Source: Nitrospirae bacterium CG2_30_70_394 (GTDB lineage Bacteria; CG2-30-53-67; CG2-30-70-394). From it: a DNA stretch of 46,741 nucleotides. The notes beneath the pieces were generated by a model. It made no database searches. It was not told where the DNA came from and saw nothing but the letters and a program-made list of their open reading frames with translations. The DNA lies in assembly GCA_001873295.1 (NCBI GenBank), contig MNYW01000083.1:299-47039 (forward strand). Direction: 5' to 3'. Shown here in pieces: positions 1,574-45,497 of this stretch; position 1 is the stretch's first letter; each line of letters starts with the position of its first letter. The position numbers and the translations under genes were made by a program.

Positions 1574-1661
1574 ATAGATGTACGGATGATTTAGCGTTCG
1601 TAATCTGTCTCGATTTCGGGAGATCTACCGGCCGGTAATCTCCAACTAGGTGGAAAGCGAA

Positions 1662-2429: not shown

Positions 2430-2434
2430 TTTAG

Positions 2435-5565: not shown

Positions 5566-6384
5566 ATGTCCCTCTTCCTCCTTCGCCGCCTCCCCCTCGC
5601 CGTGGTGTCGCGCCTCGTGGGATGGGTGGCGCGGCGCCGCCTGGGGCCGCGCCTGCTCCAGCCACTCCTGCGAGCCTACGCGCGCCACTACCGGGTGAAC
5701 CTCGGCGAGGCAGAAACGGCGCTGACCGCGTATCCCACGGTCGAGGCCTTTTTCACTCGCCGCCTGCGGCCGGGCAGCCGGCCGGTGGCAACGACGCCCC
5801 TCGTGTCGCCGTGCGACGGCTGGCTGGCCCCGGCGGAGCGGATCACCGGGGATCGGGCGATCACCGCCAAGGGGTACCCGTACCGACTCGCCGACCTCCT
5901 GGGTCCGCTCGCGCCCTGGGGGTCGCGCCTCGCCGGCGGTCAGTGGCTCACCCTCTATCTGTCGCCGCGCGACTACCACCGCTTCCACGCCCCCGCGGCG
6001 ATGGTGGTGGTGGAGAGCTGTCACCTCCCGGGCCGGCGCTGGCCGGTGAATGGCTGGGGGATCGACCACCTCCCGGACCTCTTCGTGGAGAACGAGCGGG
6101 TGGTGGTGGCGGCGGAGACCACTGCGGGGTGGCCGCTGGTGATGGTCTTCGTGGCGGCGCTCAACGTCGGGCGGATCGAGCTACACGGGGTGGGTCCCGC
6201 TACCGGTCAGGGTAGCCGCCACCACTGGGCGCTCACCGCGGGCGAGGAGATGGGCTACTTCGGCCTCGGTTCGACCATCCTCCTGCTCTTGCCGCCGTCC
6301 GCGCCTCCGCTGCTGGCGCGCGGCGGTGGCGCCCCTATTCGGGTCGGTGAGGCCTTGGCGAACGCGCCGCCTGGAGGGCGATGA
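5566..6384 (+). CDS. psd: Phosphatidylserine decarboxylase proenzyme
   Basis: FFTRRLRPGSRP, SPCDG, YLSPRDYHRFHAP, ENER and GLGST self-cleavage motif. Start at ATG 5566. Confidence 0.9.
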   Translation: MSLFLLRRLPLAVVSRLVGWVARRRLGPRLLQPLLRAYARHYRVNLGEAETALTAYPTVEAFFTRRLRPGSRPVATTPLVSPCDGWLAPAERITGDRAITAKGYPYRLADLLGPLAPWGSRLAGGQWLTLYLSPRDYHRFHAPAAMVVVESCHLPGRRWPVNGWGIDHLPDLFVENERVVVAAETTAGWPLVMVFVAALNVGRIELHGVGPATGQGSRHHWALTAGEEMGYFGLGSTILLLLPPSAPPLLARGGGAPIRVGEALANAPPGGR

Positions 6385-6916
6385 GGGCGCCGACGACGCC
6401 GGCGACCAGCATCACCACGAGAATCGCGATGCCGCGGTGGTCGTGGGCCCGCTGGATCATGTCGATGGCGAACTCCCCGAGGAAGTAGCCGGCGGCGGTG
6501 AAGATGATCGCCCACGGGAAGGCGGAGGAGGCGTTGAGGAGTAGGAAGCGGCTCGGCGGCGTGCGCAGCATCCCGAAGGTGAGGGGCAAAAGGATCCGGA
6601 AGCCGTACATGAAGCGCGACGCCGGGATCAGCCAGCCGTGGTAGCGGTCAATGAGTTCCATCGCTTTGTTCACCCGGCCGGAGAAGGCGCGTACCCGCCG
6701 GATGATCGGCTCCCCGCGCCAGCGGCCCAGGTAGTAGTAGCCCTGATCGCCGATCACCGCGCCCACCACCGCCACCCCGTACACCTCCCAAAAGCTGAAC
6801 ATGCCGATGTGGGCGAGGAAGCCGGCCACCACCAACACCAGCTCCCCCTCGAGGACGCAGCCGACGAAGACGAACCAGAGGCCGTAGTCGAAGAGGTAGG
6901 ACTGGACCTGGTCCAT
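6335..6916 (-). CDS. DedA family membrane protein
   Basis: LEGE..AGFLA, GAVIGDQGYYYLGR and RFMYGFR DedA/SNARE-associated motifs. Its 3' end overlaps psd convergently by 50 bp. Confidence 0.88.
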   Translation of the reverse strand: MDQVQSYLFDYGLWFVFVGCVLEGELVLVVAGFLAHIGMFSFWEVYGVAVVGAVIGDQGYYYLGRWRGEPIIRRVRAFSGRVNKAMELIDRYHGWLIPASRFMYGFRILLPLTFGMLRTPPSRFLLLNASSAFPWAIIFTAAGYFLGEFAIDMIQRAHDHRGIAILVVMLVAGVVGALIALQAARSPRPHRPE

Positions 6917-7028
6917 CGGGGTTCGCTTCGTTTTCGGGGAGGTGGGGAGTTGGGTTAGGGATGGGGTCGGCCGCCGGCCGCGGGCGATCTTTTCACGACG
7001 CTATCCGTACCTGCCCGCTCTCCCGCCC

Positions 7029-7418
7029 CTATTCCCACACATCCGGGTAGCGCACGGTCACCACCGTGTGGATGCCGCCGCGGACCTTGAAGTCTGCCAC
7101 CACCTCCATGCGCCGCGGTGCGGTGGCGGCCACCAGGTCGTCGAGGACCTGGTTGGTGACCGCTTCGTGGAAGGCACCTTCGTCGCGGTACGACCAGAGG
7201 TAGAGCTTCAGGGACTTGAGCTCGACGCAGGTCTGATCGGGACAGTAGCGGATGGTGAAGGTGGCGAAGTCGGGCTGGCCGGTGACCGGGCAGAGGCAGG
7301 TGAACTCCGGGCAGACCAGCTCGATGTCGTACTCCCGGTCCGGGTACGGGTTAGCGAAGGTGTCGAGGTTGCGCGACGGCCCGCGGTGTTCCCCCGCACC
7401 GAGCCGCCCCATGCTCAC
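7029..7418 (-). CDS. queF: NADPH-dependent 7-cyano-7-deazaguanine (preQ0) reductase, short type
   Basis: [26 protein letters not shown] and RGGI motifs. Confidence 0.95.
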
Positions 7419-8359
7419 TGGGCCGCCTCGACGAGGAAGTGCTCGGCGTCGAGGGCCGCCTGGCAGCCGGTGCCGGCGGCGGTGATCGCCTGCTTGTAGA
7501 CCGGGTCCATTACATCGCCGCAGGCAAAGACGCCGGGGACGGAGGTGGCGGTCGAGTGGGGCGCGGTGGTGATGAAGCCGGCAGGGTTCAGCGCCAGCTG
7601 GCCGTTGAGGAAGGCGGTGTTCGGCTGGTGGCCGATGGCCATGAAGATGCCGTCCGCGGGCCGCTCGGTGATCGCGCCGCTCTTCACGTTCTTGACCCGC
7701 ACGCCGGTGACGTGGGGTGGGTCGCCCGCGCCGAGGATTTCCACGATCGTCGAGTCCCAGAGGCAGGTGATCTTGTCATTCGCCTGCACCCGGTCGGCGA
7801 GGATCTTGCTCGCGCGCAGTTGGTCGCGGCGGTGGACGAGAGTGACCCGGGAGGCGAACTTGGTGAGGAAGAGAGACTCCTCCGCTGCCGTGTCGCCGCC
7901 GCCGACCACGTAGACCTCCTTGTCGCGAAAGAAGAAGGCGTCGCAGGTGGCGCAGGCAGAGACCCCGAAGCCGCGGTACCGCGTCTCCGACTCCAGCCCC
8001 AGCCAGCGCGCCGAGGCGCCCGTGGCGACGATCAAACAGTCGGCGGTGTAGGGGTCGCCGCCGGTGGTGACGGAGAACGGCCGCTGCCTTAGATCGACGC
8101 CCGTGACCACCTCGAAGAGGCAGCGGGTACCAAACCTTTCCGCCTGCCTCTTCATCAATTCCATAAGCTCGGGTCCCTGGATCCCTGCAGGGAAGCCGGG
8201 AAAGTTATCCACCTCGGTGGTCATGGTGAGTTGGCCACCCGGCTGCGGCCCCTCCAGGACCAGGGGGTTGAGGTCGGCGCGAGCCGCGTAGAGCGCCGCG
8301 GTGTAGCCCGCCGGGCCGCCGCCGATGATGACGAGTTTCTCGTGGTGGGTGTCGGCCAA
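7415..8359 (-). CDS. trxB: Thioredoxin-disulfide reductase
   Basis: [15 protein letters not shown] active site, GGGDTA, HRRD and QAITAAGTG; TTG start after GAGGAGG. Confidence 0.96.
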
Positions 8360-15713: not shown

Positions 15714-16843
15714 CCCTCCGCCTCGTGGGGGGGCCGCGGCGGGGCGTGGACCTCCAGGGTGACGACGCGCAGGCCATCCACCGCGCTTACCACGATCTCC
15801 ACCCCCTCGACCTCCAGCCGCTCGCCGACCGCCGGGAAGTGGTCGAGCCGGTGGATCACGAAGCCGCCCAGGGTCTCGAAGTCGTTGCCCTGGATGTGGG
15901 TGGCGAAGGTGTCGTTGAACTCCTCCGGGGAGGCCATCGCCGAGACTCGGAAGCGGCCATCGCCGAGCGGTTCGATCGGTCGCTCCTCGCCCCCTTCGCC
16001 AAGCTCGCCGACCAGCTCGCGCAGGATGTCTTCCATGCACACCAGCCCCGAGGTAGTGCCGTGCTCGTCGATGACGATGGCGACGTGGACGTGGCTGCGC
16101 TGGAAGTCGCGCAACAGCTCGTCAATGGCGCGCGTCTCGGGGACGAAGAGGGGCGGCTGGGCGAGGTCGCGCAGCGGCGGGAGGGCGGTGCGGCCGGCGG
16201 CCAAAAGGTCCTTGGCGTAGACGATCCCCAGTACGTGGTCGAGGTCGCCGTCGATCACCGGCACCCGCGAGAAGCGACCGCGGAGGAGCTCGGGGATGAT
16301 CCGCTCCGGGGGCAGGTCGGCGGCGAGGGCGAAGATGTCGGGGCGTGGCGTCATCACCTCGCGTACCTGCGTCTCGCCGAAGCTATAGACGTTGTGGAGC
16401 AGCTCGCGGATCGTGTCGTCCGACTCCTCCACGGCGGTCGGCGGCGGGGGCGGCGGCGGGGCGCGGTGCAACCATGACCGCAGCGGGGTGGCGAGGAGGG
16501 GGGCGATACAGAGATCGCCGAGGTGGGCAACCCGGCGACACATCCGGTCGGAGAGGTGGTCCGCGACCCGCAGGGGCAGCGGGTCGCGGACCAGCACTAC
16601 CGCGGTCAGGCCGAGGGCGAGGTGAATCGCTTCGAGGTCACCGCGCAGCAGGCCGCCCGCGGCGAGGGCGGCGACCAGCGCCGCGACGGTGCAGGCGAGC
16701 TCCACGGCGTGGTGGGCCTCCCCCTCAGCCGGCGCCGGCGGCTCCAGCTCCACCTGGCGTCCCGCACAACGGCGGACGAGGTTCGCCGTGAACAGGAGCG
16801 CCACGAGGGCAACGAGGATGAGTCCCGCCGGATCTGGGTCCAA
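15710..16843 (-). CDS. HlyC/CorC (CNNM-like) CBS-domain membrane protein, second paralogue
   Basis: TTG start (MDPDPAG) after AGGAAAG; VREVMTPR, FSRVPV, IDEHGTTSGLVCMEDILRELVGE and ETLGGF. Confidence 0.85.
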   Translation of the reverse strand: MDPDPAGLILVALVALLFTANLVRRCAGRQVELEPPAPAEGEAHHAVELACTVAALVAALAAGGLLRGDLEAIHLALGLTAVVLVRDPLPLRVADHLSDRMCRRVAHLGDLCIAPLLATPLRSWLHRAPPPPPPPTAVEESDDTIRELLHNVYSFGETQVREVMTPRPDIFALAADLPPERIIPELLRGRFSRVPVIDGDLDHVLGIVYAKDLLAAGRTALPPLRDLAQPPLFVPETRAIDELLRDFQRSHVHVAIVIDEHGTTSGLVCMEDILRELVGELGEGGEERPIEPLGDGRFRVSAMASPEEFNDTFATHIQGNDFETLGGFVIHRLDHFPAVGERLEVEGVEIVVSAVDGLRVVTLEVHAPPRPPHEAEG

Positions 16844-16870
16844 ACCGATCTTTCCTATGCTGTGGATTCC

Positions 16871-16937
16871 GAAGGAGGGAGGGGGTAGAGCGCGCACCTC
16901 CGCACCGCCGCGGTGGCGCCTCCCCCCTTCCTCCTTC
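16871..16937. repeat. 14-bp purine/pyrimidine inverted repeat (one mismatch) between aspS and the CorC gene
   Basis: GAAGGAGGGAGGGG (16871-16884) and CCCCTTCCTCCTTC (16924-16937). Confidence 0.6.
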
Positions 16938-16944
16938 CTGTGCC

Positions 16945-18720
<1,776 letters not shown>

Positions 18721-19213
18721 GTCCGTACCCTCCGTGCGGCCCGACGGGACCGAAATGGGGCGGCAGTGTACCAGTCAGCGGCGGCGGGCAGTAGCGGCGC
18801 CTCGCCTCCAGAGTCGGTCGCTTTGGCGATCGGCGCGCCCACCCGCGGGCCCGATCCGGGCCGAGAGCCGGTCGCAGCCGGAGACCGGGACAAGGTCCGG
18901 CTCGCCCCTACGGACCGGTCGCAGGCAGGACCGCCGCGTCGCGGGTGGTGCGGGCGGTGGCCGGAGCCAGGCGCGGCGGTACCGCCGGTGTGGGCGCCCT
19001 AGATTCCGCACGGGTCGTGGATGGCGGCCGGGAGGGGCGGGGCGCGCGGCGGGTTCTGAGGCGACCGCCAGCCGGTCGCGGGTCGGCGCCCGCCGCGGGA
19101 TGCGGACCGGTGGAGGCGTGATCGCTCGGCCGGCGCGCCGGCGGGTGAGCGAGATGGGTGGGCAACACACTGAGGGTGCGGCCCCGTCGTTTCGGGTAGG
19201 CGTTCCGTGCGCG

Positions 19214-19303
19214 GGCGACGCGGTGCGCGCGGGGGTGGGTCGGTGGGGGGAGATGAGCGGGTTGGCCACCGCTACGGCGACGCGGTGCGCGCGGGGGTGG
19301 GTC
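19214..19303. repeat. Exact 28-bp direct repeat pair with 34 bp between copies
   Basis: GGCGACGCGGTGCGCGCGGGGGTGGGTC at 19214-19241 and 19276-19303. Confidence 0.88.
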
Positions 19304-19307
19304 TCCC

Positions 19308-19370
19308 TTGATGGGTGTCAAAGCCGCGCCGGGCGTGGCTTTGCGCGGAAAAGAAGCGGCAAGCTAGTGT
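19308..19370 (+). promoter_or_regulatory. FNR/CRP-like box plus candidate sigma70 promoter of the Rieske/cyt b operon
   Basis: TTGAT-GGGT-GTCAA (19308-19321; one mismatch to FNR consensus), then TTGCGC (19341-46)-18 bp-TAGTGT (19365-70). Confidence 0.5.
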
Positions 19371-19452
19371 AATGGTGGTCTTTCCGTTGATTGGCCCCGC
19401 GGGGGCGTGGTAGCGTCCGCGCCCGTTCGGCGCAGGTAGGGGGAGAGCAGCC

Positions 19453-21306
19453 GTGGCACCGGCCTACAACCAGAGAAAGTTCGACCTGAAGATCGTCGAC
19501 CAGGAGTACCTGTTCGGGAACTTCTCCTGCGCCGCCGGCTGTCCGGTCTACACCCACGCCGGCGAGTACGTGCAGGCGATCGCCGAGGGCGATTTCGAGC
19601 GCGCCTACGCGGTGGCGCGCGGCCCCAACGTCTTCGCCTCGGTGTGCGGCCGCACCTGCTCCCATCCGTGTGAGCAGCAGTGTCGCAAGGGGGTGGTGGC
19701 AAAGCGGCCGATCTCGATTCGGGCGCTGAAGCGATATGTGACGGAGAAGTACGGGGTGGAGATCACCCGCAACCTGCAAAAGAGCCTCTCGTTTTCCACC
19801 GCCCCGGGCTCCACCCACCCCACCCCCAACGGCCACAAGGTGGCGATGGTCGGTGCCGGTCCAGCGGGCATCTCGTGCGCCCACGACCTCGCCCGCCTCG
19901 GCTACGAATGCCACGTCTACGAGCGGCTCGAGGTCCCCGGCGGGATGCTCTACGTCGGGATTCCCGAGTACCGCCTGCCGCGCGAGCTGATCAAGAACGA
20001 GGTGGCGGCGGTGGAGCTGCTCGGGGTACAGATCCACTACGGCCAGGAGTGCGGCAAAGACTTCACCGTCCAGTCGCTCTTTGACGACGGCTGCGAGGCG
20101 GTCTTCCTTGGCATCGGCGCCCACCTCGGCCGCGGCTTGCCGATCCCCGGCAAGGAGCTTCAGGGGATCCACGTCGCCGTTCCCTTCCTGCGCGACGCGG
20201 CCCTCTACCGGCCGATCGCGGAGCTGGGCGAGCGGGTGTTGATCATCGGCGGCGGCAACGTCGCGATGGACGTGGCGCGCACCACCATCCGGGTGAAGCC
20301 GGAGGTGAAGGAGGTGCGGATCACCTGTTTGGAAAGCCGCGACAAGATGCTCGCCTTCCCCTGGGAGCTGGAGGAGGCCATGGAGGAGGGGGCGACCCTC
20401 GACGCCGGTTGGGGGCCCCTGGAGTTTGTCGGCGAGAAGGGCCGGCTCACCGGCGTGCGGATGAAGCAGATCGCCTCGATCTTCGACGCCGCGGGCAAGT
20501 TCAACCCAGAGTACGTGGAGGGGAGCGAGACGATCTTCGCCTGCGATACCTGCGTGCTGGCCATCGGCCAGGGGATCGACACCACCTTTCTGACCGCGGC
20601 GGATGGGGTAAAGGTGGGGCCACGCGGCAACATCGAGACCAATCCACAGACGATGCAGACCTCCAACCCGCGCGTCTTCTGCGGCGGCGACGCGGCCTTC
20701 GGGCCTAGGCTGGTGATCGATGCGGTGGCCGAGGGGAGCCGGGCGGCGCGCGGCATCGACGAGCTGATCCAGGGGCGGTCGCGGATCATCAAGCTGTGGT
20801 CCTCCACCGAGGTCCCCAACTTCCACGTCAGCCCGCTGATCGACCTTGACGCCAAGCGGCCCGAGGTCTTTGCGATGGCGGCGGACTACGACTACCGCCC
20901 GCGCATCGAGCCGCTCACGATCTCCTTCGACGATCGTCACAACTGGAAAGAGGTGGAGCAGGTCTACTCGCAGGCGGATGCGCGCGCCGAGGGCAACCGC
21001 TGCCTGCGCTGCAACTTCAACACCGTCTTCTCGTCGGCCACCTGCATCCTGTGCGGCGGCTGTATCGACGTCTGCCCGGAAAACTGTCTGTCGATCATCG
21101 ACGTCGCGCAGATCCACGCCGCCACCGGGTCCGCCATGGAGCAACTCTTGGCGGCGCGCTACGCGGGTGAGGCGGCGCCGAACGGCGCGGCCATCATCAA
21201 GGACGACGCCCGGTGCGTGCGCTGCGACCTCTGTGTCCGGCGCTGCCCCACGGACGCGATCACCATGGAGCGGTACGAGGAAAGGGAGGTGGCTCTCGAT
21301 GTCTGA
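19453..21306 (+). CDS. FAD/Fe-S NAD(P)H oxidoreductase (GltD/NfnB/DsrL-like architecture with C-terminal 2x[4Fe-4S])
   Basis: CAAGCP..CGRTCSHPCEQQC, GAGPAG, GIPEYRLP, GGGNVAMD, GGD, RCLRC, CILCGGCIDVCP and CVRCDLCVRRCP. Confidence 0.88.
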   Translation: MAPAYNQRKFDLKIVDQEYLFGNFSCAAGCPVYTHAGEYVQAIAEGDFERAYAVARGPNVFASVCGRTCSHPCEQQCRKGVVAKRPISIRALKRYVTEKYGVEITRNLQKSLSFSTAPGSTHPTPNGHKVAMVGAGPAGISCAHDLARLGYECHVYERLEVPGGMLYVGIPEYRLPRELIKNEVAAVELLGVQIHYGQECGKDFTVQSLFDDGCEAVFLGIGAHLGRGLPIPGKELQGIHVAVPFLRDAALYRPIAELGERVLIIGGGNVAMDVARTTIRVKPEVKEVRITCLESRDKMLAFPWELEEAMEEGATLDAGWGPLEFVGEKGRLTGVRMKQIASIFDAAGKFNPEYVEGSETIFACDTCVLAIGQGIDTTFLTAADGVKVGPRGNIETNPQTMQTSNPRVFCGGDAAFGPRLVIDAVAEGSRAARGIDELIQGRSRIIKLWSSTEVPNFHVSPLIDLDAKRPEVFAMAADYDYRPRIEPLTISFDDRHNWKEVEQVYSQADARAEGNRCLRCNFNTVFSSATCILCGGCIDVCPENCLSIIDVAQIHAATGSAMEQLLAARYAGEAAPNGAAIIKDDARCVRCDLCVRRCPTDAITMERYEEREVALDV

Positions 21307-21799
21307 TCCCACTGTCGAGCCGGAGTTCAGCTACGACCAGTTTTCCCGCCGGGACTTCTTCACCTTGGTGGGCGGGGTCGCCATGGCCGGCACCTTCGGC
21401 GCCGCCTTGGTGGCGTCGTTCCGCTACATGTGGCCGAACGTCCTCTACGAGCCGCCCACCCGCTACAAGATTGGCCCCCCGGCCGAGTACCCGGTGGGGG
21501 TCAACTTCGTCGCCGACCAGCGGATCTTCGTGGTCCGCGGGGTCTACGGCCTGCAGGAGAACGAGTACCGGGTGGTGTCGGCGATCTGCACCCACATGGG
21601 GTGCACCCCGAAGTGGGTGCAGGCGAACGAGCGCTGGGAGTGCCCGTGCCATGGCAGTCAGTTCAACACCCTCGGGGTGAAGGTGGCCGGGCCGGCGCCG
21701 CGGCCGCTGCCGTGGTACGAGGTGAGCATGGGCAACGACGGCCGCTTGCTGGTGGACCAAAACAAGGTGGTCGCCGCCGACTTCAAGCTGAGTGTGTGA
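21299..21799 (+). CDS. Rieske [2Fe-2S] subunit of a Rieske/cytochrome b complex
   Basis: Tat motif SRRDFF plus TM anchor; CTHMGC, CPCHGSQF and GPAPRPL. Overlaps the upstream gene by 8 bp. Confidence 0.93.
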   Translation: MSDPTVEPEFSYDQFSRRDFFTLVGGVAMAGTFGAALVASFRYMWPNVLYEPPTRYKIGPPAEYPVGVNFVADQRIFVVRGVYGLQENEYRVVSAICTHMGCTPKWVQANERWECPCHGSQFNTLGVKVAGPAPRPLPWYEVSMGNDGRLLVDQNKVVAADFKLSV

Positions 21800-21851
21800 C
21801 GGCCTGGACCCGCGGGCGGGGGGAGCGCCACCGAGGAGTGAGGAGGAAGAG

Positions 21852-22601
21852 ATGAGCCGCGTCGCCGATGTCCTGTTCGCCAACCGGGTGTGGAAGTCCG
21901 TCTTCCGCCACGGCTATCCAAGCAACCCGCGCAACCGTGCGGAGGTGATGTTTCAAAACGTCTTCCTCCACATCCAGTCGGTGAAGGTCTTCAAGCGGAG
22001 CCTGCAGGTGAGCGCCACCTTTGGCCTCGGGTTGACCCTCGCCTACCTCTTCCTCCTCCTCACCCTCAGCGGCTTTTTGCTGATGTTCTACTACGTCCCG
22101 GAGGTGCACCGCGCCTACGCGGACATGAAGGACCTGGAGTTTGCGGTGAGCTTCGGGGTGGTGCTTCGGAACATGCACCGGTGGGGTGCCCACGCGATGG
22201 TTGCCTTCACCTTCTTGCACATGGCGCGGATCTTTTACACCGGCGCGTACAAGGCACCGCGGGAGTTCAACTGGCTGATTGGCATCCTGTTGCTGGTCAT
22301 CACCCTCTTCCTCTCCCTCTCCGGCTACCTCCTGCCGTGGGACCAGCTCGCCTACTGGGCAATCACCATCGTGTCCAACCTGATCCGCACGACGCCGCCG
22401 GCCGACATCGTCGGCGCCGGCGCCAGCTATTTCGTCCTCGGGGGCACCCAGATCGGGCAGAACACCCTGATCCGGTTCTACGTGATGCACGTCTTTGGCC
22501 TGCCCGCCATCGCCGGAATCTTGATGGTGGTGCACTTCTGGCGGATCCGGAAGGACGGCGGTCTGGCGCGTCCGGACGAGAGCAACATCCCCTTGCGCTA
22601 G
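21852..22601 (+). CDS. Cytochrome b6-like subunit (N-terminal half of a split cytochrome b)
   Basis: SGFLLMFYYVP, RNMHRWGAH..LHMARIF, PREFNW, GYLLPWDQLAYWA and H-x14-H in helix D. Confidence 0.93.
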   Translation: MSRVADVLFANRVWKSVFRHGYPSNPRNRAEVMFQNVFLHIQSVKVFKRSLQVSATFGLGLTLAYLFLLLTLSGFLLMFYYVPEVHRAYADMKDLEFAVSFGVVLRNMHRWGAHAMVAFTFLHMARIFYTGAYKAPREFNWLIGILLLVITLFLSLSGYLLPWDQLAYWAITIVSNLIRTTPPADIVGAGASYFVLGGTQIGQNTLIRFYVMHVFGLPAIAGILMVVHFWRIRKDGGLARPDESNIPLR

Positions 22602-22656
22602 CACCGGGCCGGGCGGTCTTGGCGAGTTGCGCAGGCGGGACTCGAGGGAGGCAGCG

Positions 22657-23178
22657 ATGGCAGCGAAGCCGATGGACAACATGAAGTCGTACGGTCTGAT
22701 GAACCTGGTGCAGGGGAAGAGCCCGGCGATCCAGAAGGACCCGTACGACATGGTGATGAGTTGGCCCCACCTTCTCTTCCGCGAGGTGGTCCTTTTCCTC
22801 ATTGTCCTAACGATCATCATGGGGATGTCGATCCTGTTCAACGCGCCCCTGGAGGAGATGGCGGACCCGAAGAACACCCCCAACCCGGCCAAGGCGCCGT
22901 GGTACTTCCTCGGCTTACAAGAGGCGCTCTCCTGGGGTCCGCCGGTCCTCGGTGGGATCGTCTTCCCGACGGTCCTTGCCGGCTTGCTCATTGCCGTGCC
23001 GTACCTCGATCGGTCGCGCGACGGCATCGGCGTCTGGTTTCACCCCAAGCGGCGGACCATCAACATCCTCTTTACCGTGGGGATGGTCCTGTGGTTTGGC
23101 CTGATCGTCGTGGGGACCTTCCTGCGTGGCCCCAGTTGGGAGTTCTTCTGGTTCTGGGAGCCGTGGCCCATCCACTGA
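22657..23178 (+). CDS. Cytochrome b subunit IV-like protein (C-terminal half)
   Basis: WPHLL, ADPKNTPNPAKAPWYFLGLQE (APWY at the PEWY position) and PYLDR; three TM helices. Confidence 0.9.
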   Translation: MAAKPMDNMKSYGLMNLVQGKSPAIQKDPYDMVMSWPHLLFREVVLFLIVLTIIMGMSILFNAPLEEMADPKNTPNPAKAPWYFLGLQEALSWGPPVLGGIVFPTVLAGLLIAVPYLDRSRDGIGVWFHPKRRTINILFTVGMVLWFGLIVVGTFLRGPSWEFFWFWEPWPIH

Positions 23179-23246
23179 ACCGGGCGGGCGGGGCCGTTGT
23201 GTGAACAGCGAGGCCGGGGCGTGACCGCGGCCATCGGGAGAGGCGG

Positions 23247-25562
23247 ATGAGCACGAGCGTGGGCATCGTCATTGCGGTTCTGGTCCTGGCGGCGATCGCC
23301 GTCTTGCTGAAGATGAAGGCGTGGCGCCCCCTCTTCTTTGTCTTGGGGCTGGTGGTCTTCGGTCTCTTCTGGGGCCAGGTGGTGAAAGACCAGATTCACC
23401 CGTACGACGCTTACCAGCAGGAGTACCGGCAGCGGCTCGTGGAGCTCGCTGGCGGCGACCCGGCCAAGGTCGACTTCAAGCCCGGGATCGTTCAGCGCTA
23501 CATCCCGGCACTCAACCGCAGCGACCGGTGTGAGACCTGCCACCTCGCTGTCGACAACCCGCGCTTCAAGGACGCGAAGCAGCCCTTCACCACCCACCCA
23601 AATATCTCGACCCATCCGCCGGACCGGTTCGGATGCACCGTTTGCCACGAGGGCGTCGGGATCTCCGTCGACCTCCGCGGCGCCCATGGCCACCAGGAGA
23701 ACTGGCGCAACCCGGTTCTCGACAAGCGGCTCGTCCAGTCGCGTTGCGTCCAGTGTCACGAGCGCGGTGCGGCGCTCACCGGCTCCAGCCTCTACGCCCA
23801 GGGGGAGATCCTGTTCAACCGGGTTGGCTGCCTTGGCTGTCACCCGGTGAAGGGGCAAGAGCTGGAACGGCTGCCCGGGCCCGACCTGAGGATCCTCCCC
23901 AACAAAATGCAGCTCGACTGGCTGGCCGGCTGGCTCAAGGATCCGAACAGCTACCTCAAGAAGAGCTACATGCCGAACTTCGAGCTGAGCGACGACGACG
24001 TGAAGGCGATCACCTCCTACCTCGTTGCCTCCGCCCGTGGCTACCTGGCCGACCAGGGCGTGCCGAGTCTCGGCCGCGACGTCCCCACCGATCCCACGAA
24101 GGTGGCCGAGGGTAAGCAGCTCGTTCTGTCGGTCGGCTGCTTGGGCTGTCACAACATCGACGACGCTGTCCTGGTGGACGAGGCCGGTCTCGACCCGACG
24201 GTGCGCGAACGCAACTTCGGCCCTGACCTGGCGCGCACCGGCGACAAGCTCCACGGCCAGTGGATCAAGGAGTGGGTCCTCAACCCGCAGGGGCAGGACC
24301 CGAAGACCACCATGCCCAACATGCGCCTTAGCCCGAAGGAGGCCGAGGCGATCGCCGCCTACTTGCAGCAGAAGGGTGACTCCACGGTGGCGAAGATCGA
24401 CCTCGCCGCCGAGCCCGACAACGCCGAGCTGGTGGCGCGGGGCAAACAGCGGATCGAGTGGTTCAACTGCTCCGGTTGCCACCCGATCGCCGGCTTTGAG
24501 GGGCGCGCCTTCTACGGCCCCGAGCTCACCTTCGAGGGCGACCTGGACTACTTCCGCCTCGCCTTCGATTTGAAGAAGGAGGAGATGGTTGAGCGCGACG
24601 AGAAGGAGAAGGTCCAGAGCCACCTCCATGTGGCCAACTTCGTGCGCATGAAGCTGGAAGATGCGCGCCAGTTCCGGCCGGAGCTACTGAAGATGCCCAA
24701 CTTCCACTTCTCCCCCCAGGAGGTGGAGGCGCTCACCGTCTACGTCACCTCCCTCAAGGCGCGGGTCTACCCGGCGTCGTTCCACGTCGAGATGGACGAC
24801 CGCCGCAAGGCGATCTCCCGTGGCCGCGAGATGTTCGCCCGCTACAACTGCCGCGGTTGCCACGAGCTCGACCCCGCGGCGCCGCGCTCCTCCGGCCACC
24901 TGCGCGCCTATTACGCGGGTGAGGCCAAGGCCCTGGCGCCGCCGGTCCTCCACGGTGAGGGACGCAAGGTCCAGCCCCTGTGGGTCCAGGGCTTCATGCA
25001 GCGCCCGATCACCCTGCGGCCGTGGCTGGCCGTGCGCATGCCCACCTTCGGCCTCAGCGATGGCGAGGCGGAGACCCTCTCCGCCTACTTCATCGCCCTG
25101 GAGGAGAGTCAGCACCCGTTTTACGGCGTCGATTCCGGCAACCTCGACCCGGTCTCCGTGGCCGAAGGCAAAGAGCTCTTGATGCGCTTCAAGTGCCTCA
25201 AGTGCCACGTCCTCGGTGCGGAGATCCCGAAGGACAAGGCACCCAACGAGCTCGCCCCCAATCTGGAGCTCACCAAGAGCCGCCTGCGTCCGGCATGGAT
25301 CGACGAGTGGCTCACCGATCCCCAGGGGTTCCAGGCGGGGACCCGCATGCCCAACTTCTTCTTCTTCGACGAGATCGAGGACGAAAACGGCGAGGCGGTC
25401 CTCGACGCCGCCGGCAACCCGAAGCTCGACTACACGAACGACACGGCCAAGGACAACCTCGCCCAGATCCACAAGATGCGCGACTACCTCATGACCCTCG
25501 ACGCCGCCGAGGCGCGCCAGATGTGGTCGCGCCTTGGAAGCGGCGGTGACGCGGCGCAATGA
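23247..25562 (+). CDS. Membrane-anchored octahaem cytochrome c
   Basis: Two N-terminal TM segments; eight CxxCH (CETCH, CTVCH, CVQCH, CLGCH, CLGCH, CSGCH, CRGCH, CLKCH); five MPxF/M motifs. Confidence 0.92.
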   Translation: MSTSVGIVIAVLVLAAIAVLLKMKAWRPLFFVLGLVVFGLFWGQVVKDQIHPYDAYQQEYRQRLVELAGGDPAKVDFKPGIVQRYIPALNRSDRCETCHLAVDNPRFKDAKQPFTTHPNISTHPPDRFGCTVCHEGVGISVDLRGAHGHQENWRNPVLDKRLVQSRCVQCHERGAALTGSSLYAQGEILFNRVGCLGCHPVKGQELERLPGPDLRILPNKMQLDWLAGWLKDPNSYLKKSYMPNFELSDDDVKAITSYLVASARGYLADQGVPSLGRDVPTDPTKVAEGKQLVLSVGCLGCHNIDDAVLVDEAGLDPTVRERNFGPDLARTGDKLHGQWIKEWVLNPQGQDPKTTMPNMRLSPKEAEAIAAYLQQKGDSTVAKIDLAAEPDNAELVARGKQRIEWFNCSGCHPIAGFEGRAFYGPELTFEGDLDYFRLAFDLKKEEMVERDEKEKVQSHLHVANFVRMKLEDARQFRPELLKMPNFHFSPQEVEALTVYVTSLKARVYPASFHVEMDDRRKAISRGREMFARYNCRGCHELDPAAPRSSGHLRAYYAGEAKALAPPVLHGEGRKVQPLWVQGFMQRPITLRPWLAVRMPTFGLSDGEAETLSAYFIALEESQHPFYGVDSGNLDPVSVAEGKELLMRFKCLKCHVLGAEIPKDKAPNELAPNLELTKSRLRPAWIDEWLTDPQGFQAGTRMPNFFFFDEIEDENGEAVLDAAGNPKLDYTNDTAKDNLAQIHKMRDYLMTLDAAEARQMWSRLGSGGDAAQ

Positions 25563-25667
25563 AGTCCGCTTGTCTAGCCGCGTCGATCCATCAACCGTGA
25601 TCTGTCCGCACCCTGACCACCATTCGTCGCGACATCGTGTCGCGGCGTGACCCCAGGAGGAGTAGCC

Positions 25668-26366
25668 ATGAGTAGACACCCTGTCCTTTCCACCACCGCC
25701 ACCCTCGCCATGGCCCTCGGCCTCGCCGCCTCGCCGGCGAGCGGAGGCGACCTCAGCGGCAAGATCACCTACAAGGGCACCCCGCCCGCGGCGTCCATGC
25801 TGGACACCAAGTCCGACCCGGTCTGCCTCAAGGCCCACGGCACCATCCCCTCGGAAGAGGTGGTGGTGGGCGCGGGTGGCGGCCTGCAGAACGTCTTCAT
25901 CTACGTGAAGGAGGGGCTGGCGGGACAGAAGTTCGAGCCCACCGCAAACGCGGCGACCCTCGACCAGCAGGGGTGCCAGTACCGGCCCCACGTCCTCGGG
26001 GTGATGGCCGGGCAGAAGATCGACATCCTCAACAGCGACGAAACCCTGCACAACGTCCACCCGGTCCCCAAGGACAACCGCGAGTGGAACCTCGCCATGC
26101 CCTTCAAGGGGCAGAAGGTGACCAAGAAGTTTTCCAAACCGGAGATTGGCATCCACGTCACCTGCAACGTCCACGGCTGGATGAGCAACTACATCTGCGT
26201 GGTCGACAACCCCTTCTTCGCGGTCTCTGGAAACGACGGCACCTTCACCATCGCCGGCCTCCCGGATGGTGACTACACCCTCGCCGCCTGGCACGAGAAG
26301 TTTGGCGAAAAGACCGCCAAGGTCACCGTCAAGGGCGCCACCGCCACCACGTTCAGCTTCGAGTAG
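25668..26366 (+). CDS. Exported cupredoxin-like / carboxypeptidase-regulatory-like domain protein
   Basis: Signal peptide, LDQQGCQYRPHV, LHNVH, CNVHGWM and GTFTIAGLPDGDYTLAAWHE; strong AGGAGG RBS. Confidence 0.8.
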   Translation: MSRHPVLSTTATLAMALGLAASPASGGDLSGKITYKGTPPAASMLDTKSDPVCLKAHGTIPSEEVVVGAGGGLQNVFIYVKEGLAGQKFEPTANAATLDQQGCQYRPHVLGVMAGQKIDILNSDETLHNVHPVPKDNREWNLAMPFKGQKVTKKFSKPEIGIHVTCNVHGWMSNYICVVDNPFFAVSGNDGTFTIAGLPDGDYTLAAWHEKFGEKTAKVTVKGATATTFSFE

Positions 26367-26397
26367 AGCCGCCGGCCGCCGGCCGCGGAGCAAGATC

Positions 26398-26434
26398 AGC
26401 CCCCCGGACTCCCTGAGCCCGGGGGGCTTTTGTT
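26398..26434 (+). terminator. Rho-independent terminator of the Rieske/cyt b operon
   Basis: Stem AGCCCCCCGG / CCGGGGGGCT followed by TTTGTT. Confidence 0.8.
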
Positions 26435-26518
26435 GTGGCTCGTGCCCGCGGAGAGATCCACCCCACGACGCCGGCGCGGTTGTCCCTTTTGCCTTCGCGG
26501 GAGGCTGGGTCTTGTGGG

Positions 26519-29059
26519 TCAGACGCCGATGCGGCGGAGGCGGAGGATGGGGTTTTCGGGGAGGGCGGGGTCGGGGAGGTCGATCTCTGCCTCCAGCCAC
26601 CAGGTGCCATCGCCGGCGGGATCGAGGAGGGTCTGGGTGCAACGCCAGCGGCGCGGGGGGTTCTCGTGCAGGGTGGTGAGGTGGGGGCGGCGGGCGGCGG
26701 GGGTGAAGAGGATCTCGCCGTACTCGGCGAAGTAAGGGGCGAGGGCCTCCTCGATCCGGCGGGCGTCCCACGGATCCGCCTCGTCGGGACAGAGGCAGGT
26801 GGCCGCCTCCTCGTAGTCGCGCTCCGCCAGGGCGCCCACCAGGCGGTGGAGCTCGGTGCGCACCCGGGCAATAAAGGCGCGCGGGTTGCGGTGGGGGTTG
26901 AGGGATACCGGTTCGGCCGCCGGCGTCGCCTCCGGGTGGAGGCGGCGCTCCGGGTGTTGCATCTCCTCCCACTCCTCCAGCAGGGAGGCGTCGGCGGTCT
27001 CCAAGAGCGCGCGCACGTAGGCGACGATCTCGTCCACCGCATCGTCCTTGTACACATCGGGGACCGTGTGGCGGAGGCAGTTGTAGACCTGGCTCAGGTA
27101 GCGCAGGAGGACCCCCTCGGCGCGGGCGATGGCCAGGTAACGGACGTAGAGGGGGAAGGTGTAGAGCCCCTCCACCATCTCTCGCGCCACCCCCTTGGGG
27201 CGGATGTTCTCCCCCGCCACCCACGGGTGGTGGGCGGCGAAGCGGTTGAAGAGGGTGTAGATCTGCTCGGCGTTCGGCTTCGGGTAGGTGACCTCCTCCA
27301 GGCGCGCCATCCGCTCGTCGTACTCCACCCCCTCCGCCTTCAGGCGGCCGATCAGCTCGTCCTTGGCGTGGCGGATCTGGCCGTAGAGAACCGCCTGGGG
27401 GTTTTCGAGGATCGACTCCACCAGGGAGAGGAGGGCGAGGGGATAGCCGGGGTCGTCGCGATCGAGCTCGGCGAGGGCCGAAACGAGGAAGAGGGAGAGG
27501 GTGGTATGGAGTGAGAAGTCGTGCTGCAGGTGGCTGGCGAGCCGCAGGTCGCTGGTGGGGCGGCCGGGGCGGCGGGCGACGGTGATGATCCCGGCGCCGC
27601 GCAGGGAGCGGAACAGGGTGGCGGCGCGCCGCCGGTGGTAGCGCTTGGCGCCGTCGCCGTCGTGGGCGTGGCGGATCAGGTCGATGACCGCGCCGTAGCC
27701 GCCGGCGCGCTCGTGGTGCTCGATGCCGTGCTGGAGGCGCTGGAGGAGCAGCCCGTGGGTGATCTCGAAACGCGACTCGAGGGGTTCGGGGGGCTGGCTG
27801 GTGAGGCGCACGAAGGTCGCCTCGTTCCAGTTCACGAACCCCTTGGGTGCGGCCCGTTTGACGACCCGCCGCTTGTTGCCCTCCGCCACCTTCGCCACCG
27901 CCCGTTTGTTGGCGATGGTGTGTTCCGGCGCCTGGGCCACCACCCAGCCCGCGTCGTCGAACCCCTTGCGGCCGGCGCGGCCGGCGATCTGCAGAAAGTC
28001 GCGCACAGAAAGCAGCGCAACCTTGTCGCCGTCGTACTTCGAGAGGCGCGAGAAGAGGACCGTGCGGATCGGGATGTTCACCCCGACGCCCAAGGTGTCG
28101 GTGCCGCAGATCACCTTCAGCAGCCCTGCCTGCGCGAGCCGCTCCACTAGCCGCCGATAGCGCGGCAACAAGCCGGCGTGGTGGACGCCGATGCCATGGC
28201 GCAGAAAGCGGGAGAGCTCCTTGCCGTACGGGGTGTCGAGGCGCACGCCGGTGAGTTCCTTGCCGAGGGCGCGCTTCTGCTCGGCGTCGGTGATCTTCGC
28301 TGAGGTGAGCGCCTGGGCCTGGTCGGCGCAATCGCGTTGGGTGAAGTGGACGATGTAGATCGGCGCCCGCTGGCTCTCGACCAGCGCCTCGACGGTCTCG
28401 TGGATCGGCGTCTCGCGGTACTCGAAGGTGAGCGGCACCGGCCGCTCCACCGCGCTCACCTCGGCGACCGCACGGCCGGTGCGGGCGGTGAGCCGCTCGC
28501 GGATCGCCGCGGTGTTGCCGAGGGTGGCGGACATGAGGAGGAAGGTAGTGGCCGGCAGGGCCAGCAGCGGCACCTGCCACGCCATGCCGCGGTCGCGGTC
28601 GCCGTAGTAGTGAAACTCGTCCATCACCACATAGGGCGCGTCCACCTCGTCGCCGCGGCGCAGCGCCTGGTTGGCGAGGACCTCGGCGGTGCAGCAGCAG
28701 ATCGGGGCATCGGGGTTGATCGTCGCGTCTCCCGTCTGCATCCCGACCCGCTGCGGGCCGAAGGTGGCGCACAGGGCGAAGAACTTCTCGTTCACCAGCG
28801 CCTTGATCGGCGCGGTGTAGATCGACCGGCTCTGCTCGCTCAGCGCCTTGAAGTGCAGCGCCGTGGCGACCAGCGACTTGCCCGAGCCGGTGGGGGTGGC
28901 GAGGACCACGTGGTGGCCGGCGAACAGCTCGAGGATCGCCTCCTCCTGCGCCGGGTAGAGGGTGAGCCCCTGACCCGCCACCCAGGTGAGGAAGCGGTCG
29001 AGGACGTCGCCGGCGGCGAGGTGGCTCCCTTCCGGGAGGAGGTCGGCGAGGGTGGCCAT
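26519..29059 (-). CDS. DEAD/DEAH-box (Ski2-like) helicase, DUF3516-type
   Basis: TPTGSGKS, APIKALVNEK, MDEFHYY, MSAT, GTDTLGVG and QIAGRAGR. Start at ATG 29059. Confidence 0.9.
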   Translation of the reverse strand: MATLADLLPEGSHLAAGDVLDRFLTWVAGQGLTLYPAQEEAILELFAGHHVVLATPTGSGKSLVATALHFKALSEQSRSIYTAPIKALVNEKFFALCATFGPQRVGMQTGDATINPDAPICCCTAEVLANQALRRGDEVDAPYVVMDEFHYYGDRDRGMAWQVPLLALPATTFLLMSATLGNTAAIRERLTARTGRAVAEVSAVERPVPLTFEYRETPIHETVEALVESQRAPIYIVHFTQRDCADQAQALTSAKITDAEQKRALGKELTGVRLDTPYGKELSRFLRHGIGVHHAGLLPRYRRLVERLAQAGLLKVICGTDTLGVGVNIPIRTVLFSRLSKYDGDKVALLSVRDFLQIAGRAGRKGFDDAGWVVAQAPEHTIANKRAVAKVAEGNKRRVVKRAAPKGFVNWNEATFVRLTSQPPEPLESRFEITHGLLLQRLQHGIEHHERAGGYGAVIDLIRHAHDGDGAKRYHRRRAATLFRSLRGAGIITVARRPGRPTSDLRLASHLQHDFSLHTTLSLFLVSALAELDRDDPGYPLALLSLVESILENPQAVLYGQIRHAKDELIGRLKAEGVEYDERMARLEEVTYPKPNAEQIYTLFNRFAAHHPWVAGENIRPKGVAREMVEGLYTFPLYVRYLAIARAEGVLLRYLSQVYNCLRHTVPDVYKDDAVDEIVAYVRALLETADASLLEEWEEMQHPERRLHPEATPAAEPVSLNPHRNPRAFIARVRTELHRLVGALAERDYEEAATCLCPDEADPWDARRIEEALAPYFAEYGEILFTPAARRPHLTTLHENPPRRWRCTQTLLDPAGDGTWWLEAEIDLPDPALPENPILRLRRIGV

Positions 29060-29272
29060 GGCGGGGAGAGAGGGGGGGGAAAAAGGGCGGGCAGCGGGGA
29101 TGGGGCGAAGGGTGGAGGAAGAGGTGGGGAAAAGGTCGGTCCGGTGGGCTTCGGATCGTTTGGGGGCGCAGGCAGCGGGGATGGGGTGGGGCGGGTGGGG
29201 CGATCCGGCGGGCTCCACCGCTCACGCCAACCTCTTTTGCCGGCTACCCCGCGGTCGTGGCGCGCGGCGCGT

Positions 29273-30127
29273 TCACTCCCCGGTGAGGTGGGCAGCTTCG
29301 GTCTCCGCCGCCGCGTCGGCCAGGGCGACGCGGTTGCGGCCACCGTGCTTGGCCTGATAGAGGGCGCCGTCGGCGCGCGCGATGAGGGCCTCGCCGCTCA
29401 CCGGGTGTTCCACGTCGAGGCGGGAGAGGCCAATGCTGATGGTGATCGGCCCGGCCTCCGGCGGGAGGGCGAAGGGGTGGCTGGAGACGGTGGTCAGCAG
29501 CCGGTGGGCGAGGCGGAGCGCCTCGGTCTCGTCGGTGTAGGGGAGGAGGATGACGAACTCCTCGCCGCCGTAACGGGCGGAGATATCACTCGCCCGCAGC
29601 CCCGAGCGGATCAACTCGGCGATGGTCCGTAGCACCCGGTCGCCGGCCGGGTGGCCGTAGGTGTCGTTCACCCGCTTGAAGTGGTCGATGTCGATCATCA
29701 TCAGCGACAGGGGCAGGCGGTGGCGGCGGGCGGCGCGCAGGTACTCCGCCAACCGCTCGAAGAAATAGCGCCGGTTGTACATGCCGGTGAGCTCGTCGGT
29801 GACCGAGATCGCCTCCAGGCGGAGGTTGAGCCCCTCCATCAGGGTCGCCTGCGCCGCCGCCTCCCGCTGCTCGCGGACGATCGCGTCGAAGGCGCGACCG
29901 AGGAGATAGCCGGCGATGGCGAAGCAGAGCCCCGAGCCGAGGGTCATGTAGCCATAGAGGAGGGCGTGGTTGGCGAGCTCGACCTTCACCTCCGGCCACG
30001 ACCACAGCCCCTGGTGGGGAATCTGGAGGATGAACCAGCCAAGCGGCGCGATGAACGCGATGGCGACGCCCAGAAGCGGAAAACGCCACCGCCGGGGAAT
30101 GGGGTCTCTGACGCGATCCGCGGCCAT
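29273..30127 (-). CDS. Membrane-bound diguanylate cyclase
   Basis: Two TM helices, coiled coil, TDELTGMYNRR, DIDHFKRVND, RASD I-site and GGEEF. Confidence 0.92.
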   Translation of the reverse strand: MAADRVRDPIPRRWRFPLLGVAIAFIAPLGWFILQIPHQGLWSWPEVKVELANHALLYGYMTLGSGLCFAIAGYLLGRAFDAIVREQREAAAQATLMEGLNLRLEAISVTDELTGMYNRRYFFERLAEYLRAARRHRLPLSLMMIDIDHFKRVNDTYGHPAGDRVLRTIAELIRSGLRASDISARYGGEEFVILLPYTDETEALRLAHRLLTTVSSHPFALPPEAGPITISIGLSRLDVEHPVSGEALIARADGALYQAKHGGRNRVALADAAAETEAAHLTGE

Positions 30128-45424: not shown

Positions 45425-45497
45425 GAATCGAAACTCGCGGACATGCCAGCGATGTGGTGCGCGCCCACCCTCGCGGAGGTCGGCCATGGTGGGTGAG
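45390..45497. repeat. Exact 36-bp direct repeat pair with 36 bp between copies
   Basis: CGCCCACCCTCGCGGAGGTCGGCCATGGTGGGTGAG at 45390-45425 and 45462-45497. The first copy contains the subunit I stop codon. Confidence 0.92.

Follow-up and report, generated by a model that had tools for sequence, protein, structure and literature searches.

The 46,741-nucleotide stretch analysed here, which we call the window, comes from the genome of Nitrospirae bacterium CG2_30_70_394 (contig MNYW01000083.1) and carries a Rieske/cytochrome b operon headed by the gene of a flavoprotein that would react with nicotinamide adenine dinucleotide or its phosphate (NAD(P)). The GC content of the window runs from 0.61 to 0.76 and raw lists of open reading frames (ORFs) are crowded; from 19453 to 26366 on the + strand there is a single consistent set of six genes with protein-family support. 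A first-pass annotation, made from the letters alone, had described these genes as encoding a flavoprotein, a Rieske protein, cytochrome b6, subunit IV, an octahaem cytochrome and a copper protein, and all six are present. We regard the set as very probably a genuine flavoprotein-linked Rieske/cytochrome b operon. Its features and its flanks are as follows.

19343..19452, + strand: conserved upstream stretch (alignment to two congeners)
19453..21306, + strand: flavoprotein, 617 aa, GTG start (Pfam, PDB relatives)
21299..21799, + strand: Rieske [2Fe-2S] protein, 166 aa, twin-arginine signal and membrane anchor (Pfam Rieske, 3.6e-11)
21852..22601, + strand: short b6-like cytochrome b, 249 aa (PF00033, 8.3e-42)
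22657..23178, + strand: subunit IV, 173 aa, three predicted transmembrane helices (PF00032, 4.1e-05)
23247..25562, + strand: membrane-anchored octahaem cytochrome c, 771 aa (exactly eight CxxCH motifs)
25647..26366, + strand: predicted secreted type-1 cupredoxin with a CarboxypepD_reg-like beta-sandwich, 239 aa (ligand set, fold match)
26409..26436, + strand: terminator-like G+C hairpin (26409-26426) followed by the T-run CTTTTGTTGT (scan and sequence)
16945-18720, opposite strand: aspS, upstream flank of the operon
26519-29218, opposite strand: DEAD/DUF3516 helicase gene, downstream flank of the operon

Transcription of the operon and its six products

The ATG of the Rieske gene overlaps the TGA of the flavoprotein gene by 8 nt, as the first-pass annotation had noticed, and gaps of 52 and 55 nt separate Rieske from cytochrome b and cytochrome b from subunit IV. 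The further claim of one unit running from promoter to terminator stands at its downstream end: the hairpin and T-run follow the last gene, both flanking genes lie on the opposite strand, and RNA contigs cover the genes between. The promoter is the part that did not stand, as a sigma-70 scan returned 0 sites. The last 90-100 nt or so 5' of the start codon are 84% identical in one congener (locus L015) and 77% in the other (L024), and they are the only part of the 732-nt spacer that aligns with either. This conserved stretch probably holds the promoter and 5' leader; a Shine-Dalgarno-like run, GGGGAGAG, lies at 19440-19447. An Rfam search over 18600-26600 gave no match.

Four metatranscriptome runs from aquifer samples (X19-X22) hold 73-95% of the sampled sequence words of 19300-26500, and their RNA contigs were placed on 16500-29500. 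Run X19 yields one contig of 6917 nt, 19430-26346, that spans all six genes; contigs from the remaining three tile this same region. The left ends of the contigs fall at 19430 (X19), 19431 (X21), 19435 (X22) and 19471, and the right ends at 26346, 26356, 26357 and 26399. These coincident ends weakly hint that transcription starts some 23 nt 5' of the GTG and stops shortly ahead of the hairpin. Such contigs cannot prove one transcript, its strand or its true ends. RNA cover was absent on 26482-27783 in the four runs and slight on 18670-19103, where an uncovered part proves nothing.

Two observations touch the flanks. A perfect 28-nt direct repeat (19214-19241 and 19276-19303, spaced by 62 nt) lies 150-240 nt 5' of the operon; it has only two full copies genome-wide by blastn-short, is absent from the shorter spacers of the congeners, and may have arisen by recent duplication or serve to bind a regulator. 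Each of the four RNA runs has a record that joins sequence ending at 17589 to sequence beginning at 28906, with 14 other letters between and a depth of 3.7-7.2. This record could come from another strain or organism, or from a form that lacks the intervening 11.3 kb.

The flavoprotein matches Fer4_20 (PF14691, E = 1e-18) and Pyr_redox_2 (PF07992, 1.4e-27), both above cut-off, and a C-terminal 4Fe-4S dicluster. Its domains thus run from an N-terminal Fer4_20 iron-sulphur (Fe-S) domain, through the flavin adenine dinucleotide (FAD) and NAD(P)H Rossmann domains, to a C-terminal ferredoxin domain with 2x[4Fe-4S]. The best relatives in the PDB are 9bov, 9n5u, 8oh5_C, the NfnI large subunit 5jca_L (E = 6e-64) and GltD (2e-42); the protein falls below every NCBIfam cut-off (best NF009410, 391 bits against 516). 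No transmembrane helix or hydrophobic segment is predicted, and judged by its sequence the protein is a cytoplasmic NAD(P)H flavoprotein of the NfnB/GltD type. In such proteins hydride moves between FAD and NAD(P)H, and the FAD hands electrons one at a time to [4Fe-4S] clusters. Across 50 sequences the N-terminal cysteines C26, C30, C65, C69, C73 and C77 are invariant, as are C517, C520, C531, C534, C537, C541, C545, C588, C591, C594 and C598 in the C-terminal ferredoxin domain, which is specific to this family and carries invariant Cys and Arg. An AlphaFold2 (AF2) model of the whole flavoprotein has a mean predicted local distance difference test score (pLDDT) of 74, with the C-terminal Fe-S domain mostly below 50-65, and no cluster geometry was read from it. 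A complex prediction from alignments, with two copies each of cytochrome b and subunit IV and residues 464-617 of the flavoprotein, scored 0.17 against a mark of 0.32, was run without controls and speaks neither for nor against binding; its subunit IV chain began at 22654, one codon before the ATG at 22657.

The Rieske family has the twin arginine (RR) in 80 of 80 homologues and the cluster-binding boxes CTH(L/M)GC and CPCHGS, with the serine of CPCHGS in 78 of the 80 and phenylalanine at the tyrosine position in 72. Its best PDB matches are 9rk3 (E = 1.3e-24) and 9rk4 (5.2e-22), ahead of the best b6f Rieske protein (3e-15). These two structures are the Rieske proteins Kustd1480 and Kuste4569 of the anammox bacterium Kuenenia stuttgartiensis (PMC12954380, in part), which bears out the anammox link drawn in the first-pass annotation.

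Cytochrome b was aligned in 79 rows from flavoprotein-linked loci. Histidines 109, 123, 213 and 228 are invariant and supply two bis-histidine haem b sites, and His40 is present in 78 rows. At the site of the CxGG motif, whose cysteine binds haem cN, the window protein reads G-L-G-L; the first residue there is Y in 49 rows, G in 18, W in five, C in three, A in two and F in two, followed by L-G-x, and the haem cN cysteine is thus absent in 76 of 79. The best-scoring NCBIfam model for this protein is ExtP (244 bits, cut-off 290).

Subunit IV is 173 aa long in the window, against 231-243 aa in most relatives. It carries a variant of the motif of the quinol oxidation (Qo) site, KAPWYFLGLQE, in which 'PEWY' has become 'APWY'; the run K-A-P-W-Y-F-L is invariant in 47 sequences and kept in 73-74 of 74 in a wider alignment. 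The protein lies below the cut-offs of the NCBIfam models for ExtQ (66.8 against 150) and for b6f subunit IV. Of 68 complete genes, 17 join cytochrome b to subunit IV in a single ORF of 410-519 aa (L025, L027, L028, L032, L033, L038, L048, L049, L051, L053, L067, L083, L088, L089, L092, L097 and L099), and split forms occur in the same flavoprotein-linked family.

The octahaem cytochrome c matches Pfam Cytochrom_C and multihaem families, starts with a hydrophobic hairpin and has its CxxCH motifs at residues 95, 130, 167, 195, 298, 408, 535 and 650. Among 63 complete downstream homologues eight motifs are found in 46, six in eight, five in four, four in three and ten in two. ExtS is the best-scoring NCBIfam model for part of the protein (60.4 bits, cut-off 100).

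The sixth gene starts with GTG and gives 239 aa; an alternative ATG at 25668 would give 232 aa. The product has no Pfam copper domain, its CarboxypepD_reg match (residues 192-238) is below cut-off, and a PDB sequence search returned nothing meaningful; its identity came from a fold search. The AF2 model (mean pLDDT 82) matches amicyanin and plastocyanin in Foldseek with template-modelling (TM) scores of 0.7-0.8 on the target, and H135, C173, H176 and M179 are invariant in 57 homologues. Because of these invariant ligand residues and the fold match, the model identifies the protein as a type-1 (blue) cupredoxin with a predicted His/Cys/His/Met copper site.

Conserved gene order and the haem cN site

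The first-pass annotation had named a flavoprotein not conserved beside the complex as a refutation of its reading, and our survey of gene neighbourhoods did not bear this out. We searched one genome per species with a profile of eight flavoproteins, found at least 405 relatives and analysed the best 80 loci. Directly after the flavoprotein gene stands a Rieske gene in 78 of the 80, and the two misses lie at contig ends; the counts for the genes that come next are 77 for cytochrome b, 72 for subunit IV and 70 for a multihaem cytochrome c, and every miss in this survey coincides with the end of a locus. A majority of the 80 loci belong to Acidobacteriota, the remainder to Verrucomicrobiota, Bacteroidota/Ignavibacteria, Zixibacteria, Binatota, Planctomycetota (including Scalindua), KSB1, Eremiobacterota and others. 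In seven further places (from the genus, the family, the class and one unrelated genome) the order flavoprotein, Rieske, cytochrome b and subunit IV is kept at 37-42% flavoprotein identity, with a multihaem cytochrome c next wherever the contig continues. Because the gene order is kept across this multi-phylum survey, the six-gene set is an ancient, mobile module rather than a local accident.

The copper protein belongs to the module in another position. A cupredoxin homologue occurs in 60 of the 80 loci, directly 5' of the flavoprotein gene in 53 and elsewhere in six; the downstream position seen in the window recurs in one locus, from a congener, and none was found within the locus in the remaining 20.

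Close relatives of the cytochrome b also occur without the flavoprotein. A search of the genomes of two relatives with 52% identical cytochrome b found no flavoprotein. Such a cytochrome b occurs in 102 of 120 genomes from the phylum to which one of the two belongs, and our guess is that the genomes of this clade are Nitrospinota. Among 30 loci listed from that phylum an NfnB-like gene upstream is absent in 26, present in three (33-34% identity, reaching the C-terminal domain) and cut off in one; all 30 keep C-[ML]-G-G and the equivalent of His40. C-M-G-G is likewise kept in 27 of 27 flavoprotein-less close relatives. Flavoprotein linkage and loss of the haem cN site therefore go together in a way that we find suggestive. 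We rejected a rule by which presence of the flavoprotein equals loss of the cN cysteine: five of 82 flavoprotein-linked rows keep the cysteine, and the tree has a single change. We also rejected His40 as a marker of the flavoprotein-linked forms, as it is found in the flavoprotein-less relatives too. The tree in question is a quick maximum-likelihood tree of cytochrome b (LG+G4, 111 rows) rooted on one long outgroup row, with its base unresolved. It places the 27 flavoprotein-less rows in one clade (Shimodaira-Hasegawa-like approximate likelihood ratio support 97) among unresolved flavoprotein-linked groups, and because they form a single clade the association counts as one event.

One flavoprotein-less locus, L114, has directly 5' of its Rieske gene (6261-7595) a gene for a 444-aa Lpd-like pyridine nucleotide-disulfide oxidoreductase with a dimerisation domain. 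We judge it to be probably an unrelated neighbour. Weak matches in L122 and L124 may be the same Lpd-like gene.

Genomic setting and possible fates of the menaquinol electrons

The source genome (2.65 Mb in 182 contigs, 94% complete) has only one cytochrome b that we could find, and both congeners likewise gave a single match. Three COX1-family genes are above cut-off, and one of them is cbb3-like (538 bits against a cut-off of 583). The complex I subunit NuoD is present, and no cytochrome bd was found in the genome. Menaquinone is expected because there are two matches to the futalosine pathway, while MenD is below cut-off. In agreement with the first-pass annotation, which had seen no anammox markers, the genome shows no hydrazine synthase alpha domain (HZS_alpha) within its 94% completeness. 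The complex is the only Rieske/cytochrome b route found to a cytochrome-c-dependent oxidase, and the host lies outside the anammox group and is probably microaerobic.

Other quinol-linked routes may exist beside it. Of three NrfD matches, two are halves that lie where contigs end, next to a 472-aa Fe-S protein, and one lies in a cluster on contig C50 (L113, 2851-9504) with two pentahaem cytochromes, an NrfC-like 4Fe-4S protein, and trihaem and 13-haem cytochromes c. This cluster is a possible second quinol-linked periplasmic electron route. No canonical ActABCDEF set of alternative complex III was recognised among the NrfD clusters, whose contigs are broken, and another quinol:cytochrome c route is possible.

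We propose, with a probability of roughly 0.45, that the complex bifurcates electrons from menaquinol between a periplasmic haem and copper wire and NAD(P)+. Menaquinol would give up its electrons at the Qo site, to which cytochrome b and subunit IV (with its KAPWYF motif) both contribute. One electron would pass from the Rieske cluster, exported by twin-arginine translocation, to the octahaem cytochrome, the cupredoxin and a cytochrome-c-dependent oxidase, and the other would cross the membrane through the two b haems. With no haem cN site to receive it, this second electron would enter the C-terminal 2x[4Fe-4S] domain of the flavoprotein and continue through the N-terminal Fe-S clusters to FAD and NAD(P)+. 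We expect this process to lie near equilibrium and hence to be reversible. We infer the docking of the flavoprotein, the electron path, its direction and the choice between NADH and NADPH.

By analogy, the depth of the gene linkage and the homology of the Rieske protein to a system for which this mechanism was proposed argue for bifurcation. The serine of CPCHGS is linked to a high Rieske potential, and by a symmetry argument low-potential menaquinone combined with a Rieske protein of this high-potential type would imply a haem bP of very low potential (both PMC12954380, in part). The cysteine lost here and kept in flavoprotein-less relatives is consistent with a remodelled n side.

Several points weigh against this proposal. 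Neither the docking of the flavoprotein nor the direction of its electron transfer is shown by any experiment or model here, and an invariant Glu294 past the second Rossmann strand, with a GxGxxA fingerprint, leaves both NADH and NADPH possible. The association with haem cN loss rests on one branch of the tree, five of the 82 flavoprotein-linked rows keep the cysteine, and His40, the candidate ligand of an extra haem b, is shared with the flavoprotein-less relatives. Because bc1 complexes without haem cN still reduce quinone, the loss of haem cN does not prove the loss of an n-side quinone site. Energetics are tight as well, with menaquinone at about -74 mV. Taking -320 mV for NAD(P) and about +335 mV for the Rieske cluster, the values used in PMC12954380 (in part), we estimate that the downhill span of about 409 mV barely covers 246 mV uphill plus an assumed membrane potential of about 150 mV. 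If recycling of half the electrons through NADH and complex I were obligate in this sole complex III, about 10 charges per two electrons would be needed, which by our estimate is feasible only if the proton-motive force is low, implausibly so.

The chief rival account is an ordinary Q cycle in which the flavoprotein is an n-side input, carrying electrons from NAD(P)H through FAD and Fe-S clusters to haem bN and an n-side quinone site. The complex would then contain a built-in, non-pumping NAD(P)H:menaquinone reductase (overall NAD(P)H:cytochrome c) or a redox-poising device, like the cyclic flow through ferredoxin and ferredoxin-NADP+ reductase (FNR) at b6f. We think this somewhat unlikely. 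Because the organism has a cbb3-like oxidase and this is the sole cytochrome b found in it, as in both congeners, the complex must carry the mainstream flow from quinol to cytochrome c, which is easiest with a Q cycle and fits a sole complex III better than bifurcation does. The bc1 precedent for quinone reduction without haem cN serves this account too, as does the estimate that the reverse of the bifurcating reaction is thermodynamically easy. Most holders of the module are Acidobacteriota, which are typically heterotrophs with ample NAD(P)H. A coupling of FNR to cyanobacterial b6f, cited in PMC5600118 (in part), offers a parallel. Such an input would nevertheless waste about 250 mV in a cell that has NuoD; because complex I is present a non-pumping entry would be redundant, the ground on which this option was rejected for Kuenenia (PMC12954380, in part). 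Nor does it account for the link between the input module and a Rieske protein with the high-potential-type serine, or for the cN cysteine being mostly lost in flavoprotein-linked forms and kept in flavoprotein-less ones. The Q cycle thus explains the conserved features less well than bifurcation.

Alternatively, the complex could run in reverse, with a periplasmic donor (through the cupredoxin, the octahaem cytochrome and the Rieske cluster) and NAD(P)H (through the b haems) jointly reducing menaquinone at the Qo site. NAD(P)H and the membrane potential would drive reverse electron flow from a weak periplasmic donor. The near-equilibrium energetics that we estimate would permit reversal, the source genome has the multihaem/NrfCD cluster described above, and L114, which has a similar octahaem cytochrome, resembles an operon of Nitrospina gracilis discussed for forward and reverse transport (PMC3578206, in part). 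We nonetheless find this confurcation improbable: no lithotrophic donor system was identified within the window, holders of the module are mostly Acidobacteriota and Verrucomicrobiota, and the lineage in which reverse flow is discussed is without the flavoprotein in 26 of 30 loci.

It is more improbable still that the flavoprotein, rather than being a subunit, is a soluble NAD(P)H:ferredoxin-type oxidoreductase similar to NfnB/GltD that stays in the operon for the sake of shared regulation, an account that suits its lack of a membrane helix and the two further paralogues in the genome (32% identity) and that is opposed by a gene order kept across many phyla at about 40% identity, the start/stop overlap, the family-specific C-terminal ferredoxin domain with its invariant Cys and Arg, the co-migration of all subunits in Kuenenia (reference 9 of PMC12954380, in part) and a second Scalindua cluster (L152) in which the flavoprotein gene lies between cytochrome b and subunit IV.

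If bifurcation does hold, a bolder version would be a widespread respiratory complex III outside anammox in which an Fe-S/FAD wire has replaced the n-side quinone site, so that each menaquinol sends one electron along the haem and copper wire to oxygen and one uphill to NAD(P)+. We judge this version unlikely. Were it true, quinone-based bifurcation would routinely supply NAD(P)H to aerobic and microaerobic bacteria of soil and groundwater, and haem cN loss in this lineage would mark a switch from the Q cycle to a 'pyridine-nucleotide cycle'.

Since the anammox proposal it has been a question whether a Rieske/cytochrome b complex can drive a low-potential electron onto NAD(P)+, and in anammox the mechanism has been approached only through isolated Rieske fragments and AlphaFold3 models (PMC12954380, in part). 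The module described here is common in phyla with cultivable members and is expressed in groundwater communities. The form in this lineage is simpler, lacking the cN cysteine, and includes the only cytochrome b found. Holders of the module should thus be easier test systems than anammox enrichments. If the mechanism holds, energy-yield estimates for many menaquinone-using aerobes would change; if it fails, the flavoprotein offers NAD(P)H a way into complex III of a new kind.

Elsewhere in the window, an operon for succinate dehydrogenase/fumarate reductase lies at 1650-5169, with a cytochrome b anchor, a flavoprotein and an Fe-S subunit. The stretch 44001-46000 has a G+C content of 0.74 and an AT skew of -0.41, and the only match there is a weak one to V_ATPase_I (43166-45424).

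Comparison with known systems

The kind of operon described here is already known and was first described in anammox bacteria. To call it an uncharacterised system, as the first-pass annotation did, was an overstatement: Dibrova et al. (2017; PMC5600118, in part) already state that short cytochromes b of subfamily G are accompanied by NAD(P)-binding Fe-S oxidoreductases both in planctomycete operons and 'in many other cases'. In literature searches that did not extend to the per-sequence supplements of that study, we found no paper on the module in Acidobacteria or similar phyla. What is new here is the quantified survey of gene order, the conserved cupredoxin partner and the presence of the operon in metatranscriptomes, together with the contrast between a window type without the cN cysteine and flavoprotein-less relatives with it, and the finding of a sole cytochrome b in the genus. 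Fused and split forms of cytochrome b occur within one subfamily in the same source, as they do among the flavoprotein-linked genes here. Short length correlates with CxGG in subfamily G (PMC5600118, in part), whereas the window cytochrome b is short and has no such cysteine.

Canonical b6f complexes differ from the window complex in having the haem cN cysteine, cytochrome f in place of the octahaem cytochrome, and PEWY for APWY; the window proteins all fall below the cut-offs of the NCBIfam models for b6, subunit IV and PetC. Another parallel is the FNR that co-purifies with and is coupled to cyanobacterial b6f (cited in PMC5600118, in part), likewise a pyridine-nucleotide flavoenzyme at the n side of a split b6-type complex. 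The fold of FNR is unrelated, its gene does not lie with those of the complex and it contains no Fe-S chain, and the b6f that it joins has haem cN and cytochrome f. The window flavoprotein shares its Fer4_20, FAD and NAD(P)H domains with the family of NfnB, GltD and the N-terminal part of dihydropyrimidine dehydrogenase. Unlike members of that family it carries an additional 2x[4Fe-4S] domain at the C-terminus, in which three more cysteines are invariant, and no NfnA or GltB partner gene adjoins it.

Two operons resemble the membrane part and have no flavoprotein. ExtOPQS of Geobacter sulfurreducens (Rieske protein, cytochrome b, membrane protein and cytochrome c; PMC5877670) supplies the best NCBIfam models, ExtP, ExtQ and ExtS, all matched below cut-off; the ext cluster has multihaem cytochromes and, unlike the window operon, no flavoprotein. 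Nitrospina gracilis has an operon of Rieske, b6, subunit IV and octahaem genes that is discussed under both forward and reverse electron transport (PMC3578206, in part). In our data this type is represented by the clade of L114 and L120-L145, which has Rieske, subunit IV and octahaem genes in the same order as the window, a cytochrome b 49-54% identical to that of the window and, in L114, an octahaem cytochrome 32% identical over 656 aa. It differs in having no NfnB-like gene upstream in 26 of 30 loci and in keeping C-M-G-G.

The nearest known systems are the two complexes of Kuenenia, Kustd1480-1485 and Kuste4569-4574, which have a b6-like cytochrome, a five-helix subunit IV, a hexa- or octahaem cytochrome c and haem cN. 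In AlphaFold3 models four Fe-S clusters join their b haems to the FAD of a cytoplasmic NAD(P) oxidoreductase, and an extra haem b sits between the cytochrome b monomers with an N-terminal histidine of cytochrome b (His43/His62) as ligand. Their Rieske potentials are +303 and +335 mV, all subunits co-migrate (reference 9 of PMC12954380), and quinol-driven reduction of NAD(P)+ is the favoured direction (PMC12954380, in part, for all of these). A bridge to the anammox group is also seen in Scalindua, one genome of which holds a window-type cluster (L049) and the second cluster mentioned above (L152, G160:C13:74000-86617), ordered Rieske, cytochrome b with C-M-G-G, flavoprotein and a 281-aa subunit IV, with three cupredoxin paralogues nearby.

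The window has the same parts as the Kuenenia complexes: a Rieske protein, a four-helix b6-like cytochrome b, a separate subunit IV and an FAD/Fe-S NAD(P) oxidoreductase, with a multihaem cytochrome c in place of cytochrome f or c1. The serine of CPCHGS is kept, and phenylalanine stands at the tyrosine position as in 9rk3. Haem cN is modelled in both Kuenenia complexes, whereas the window cytochrome b has no CxGG cysteine, and subunit IV has three predicted helices where theirs has five. The flavoprotein gene comes first in the window, a cupredoxin takes the place of a partner like hydroxylamine oxidoreductase, and the host is not an anammox bacterium and has a cbb3-like oxidase. On the strength of these sequence comparisons, the window operon is best placed as a variant within the NAD(P)-oxidoreductase-linked Rieske/cytochrome b kind.

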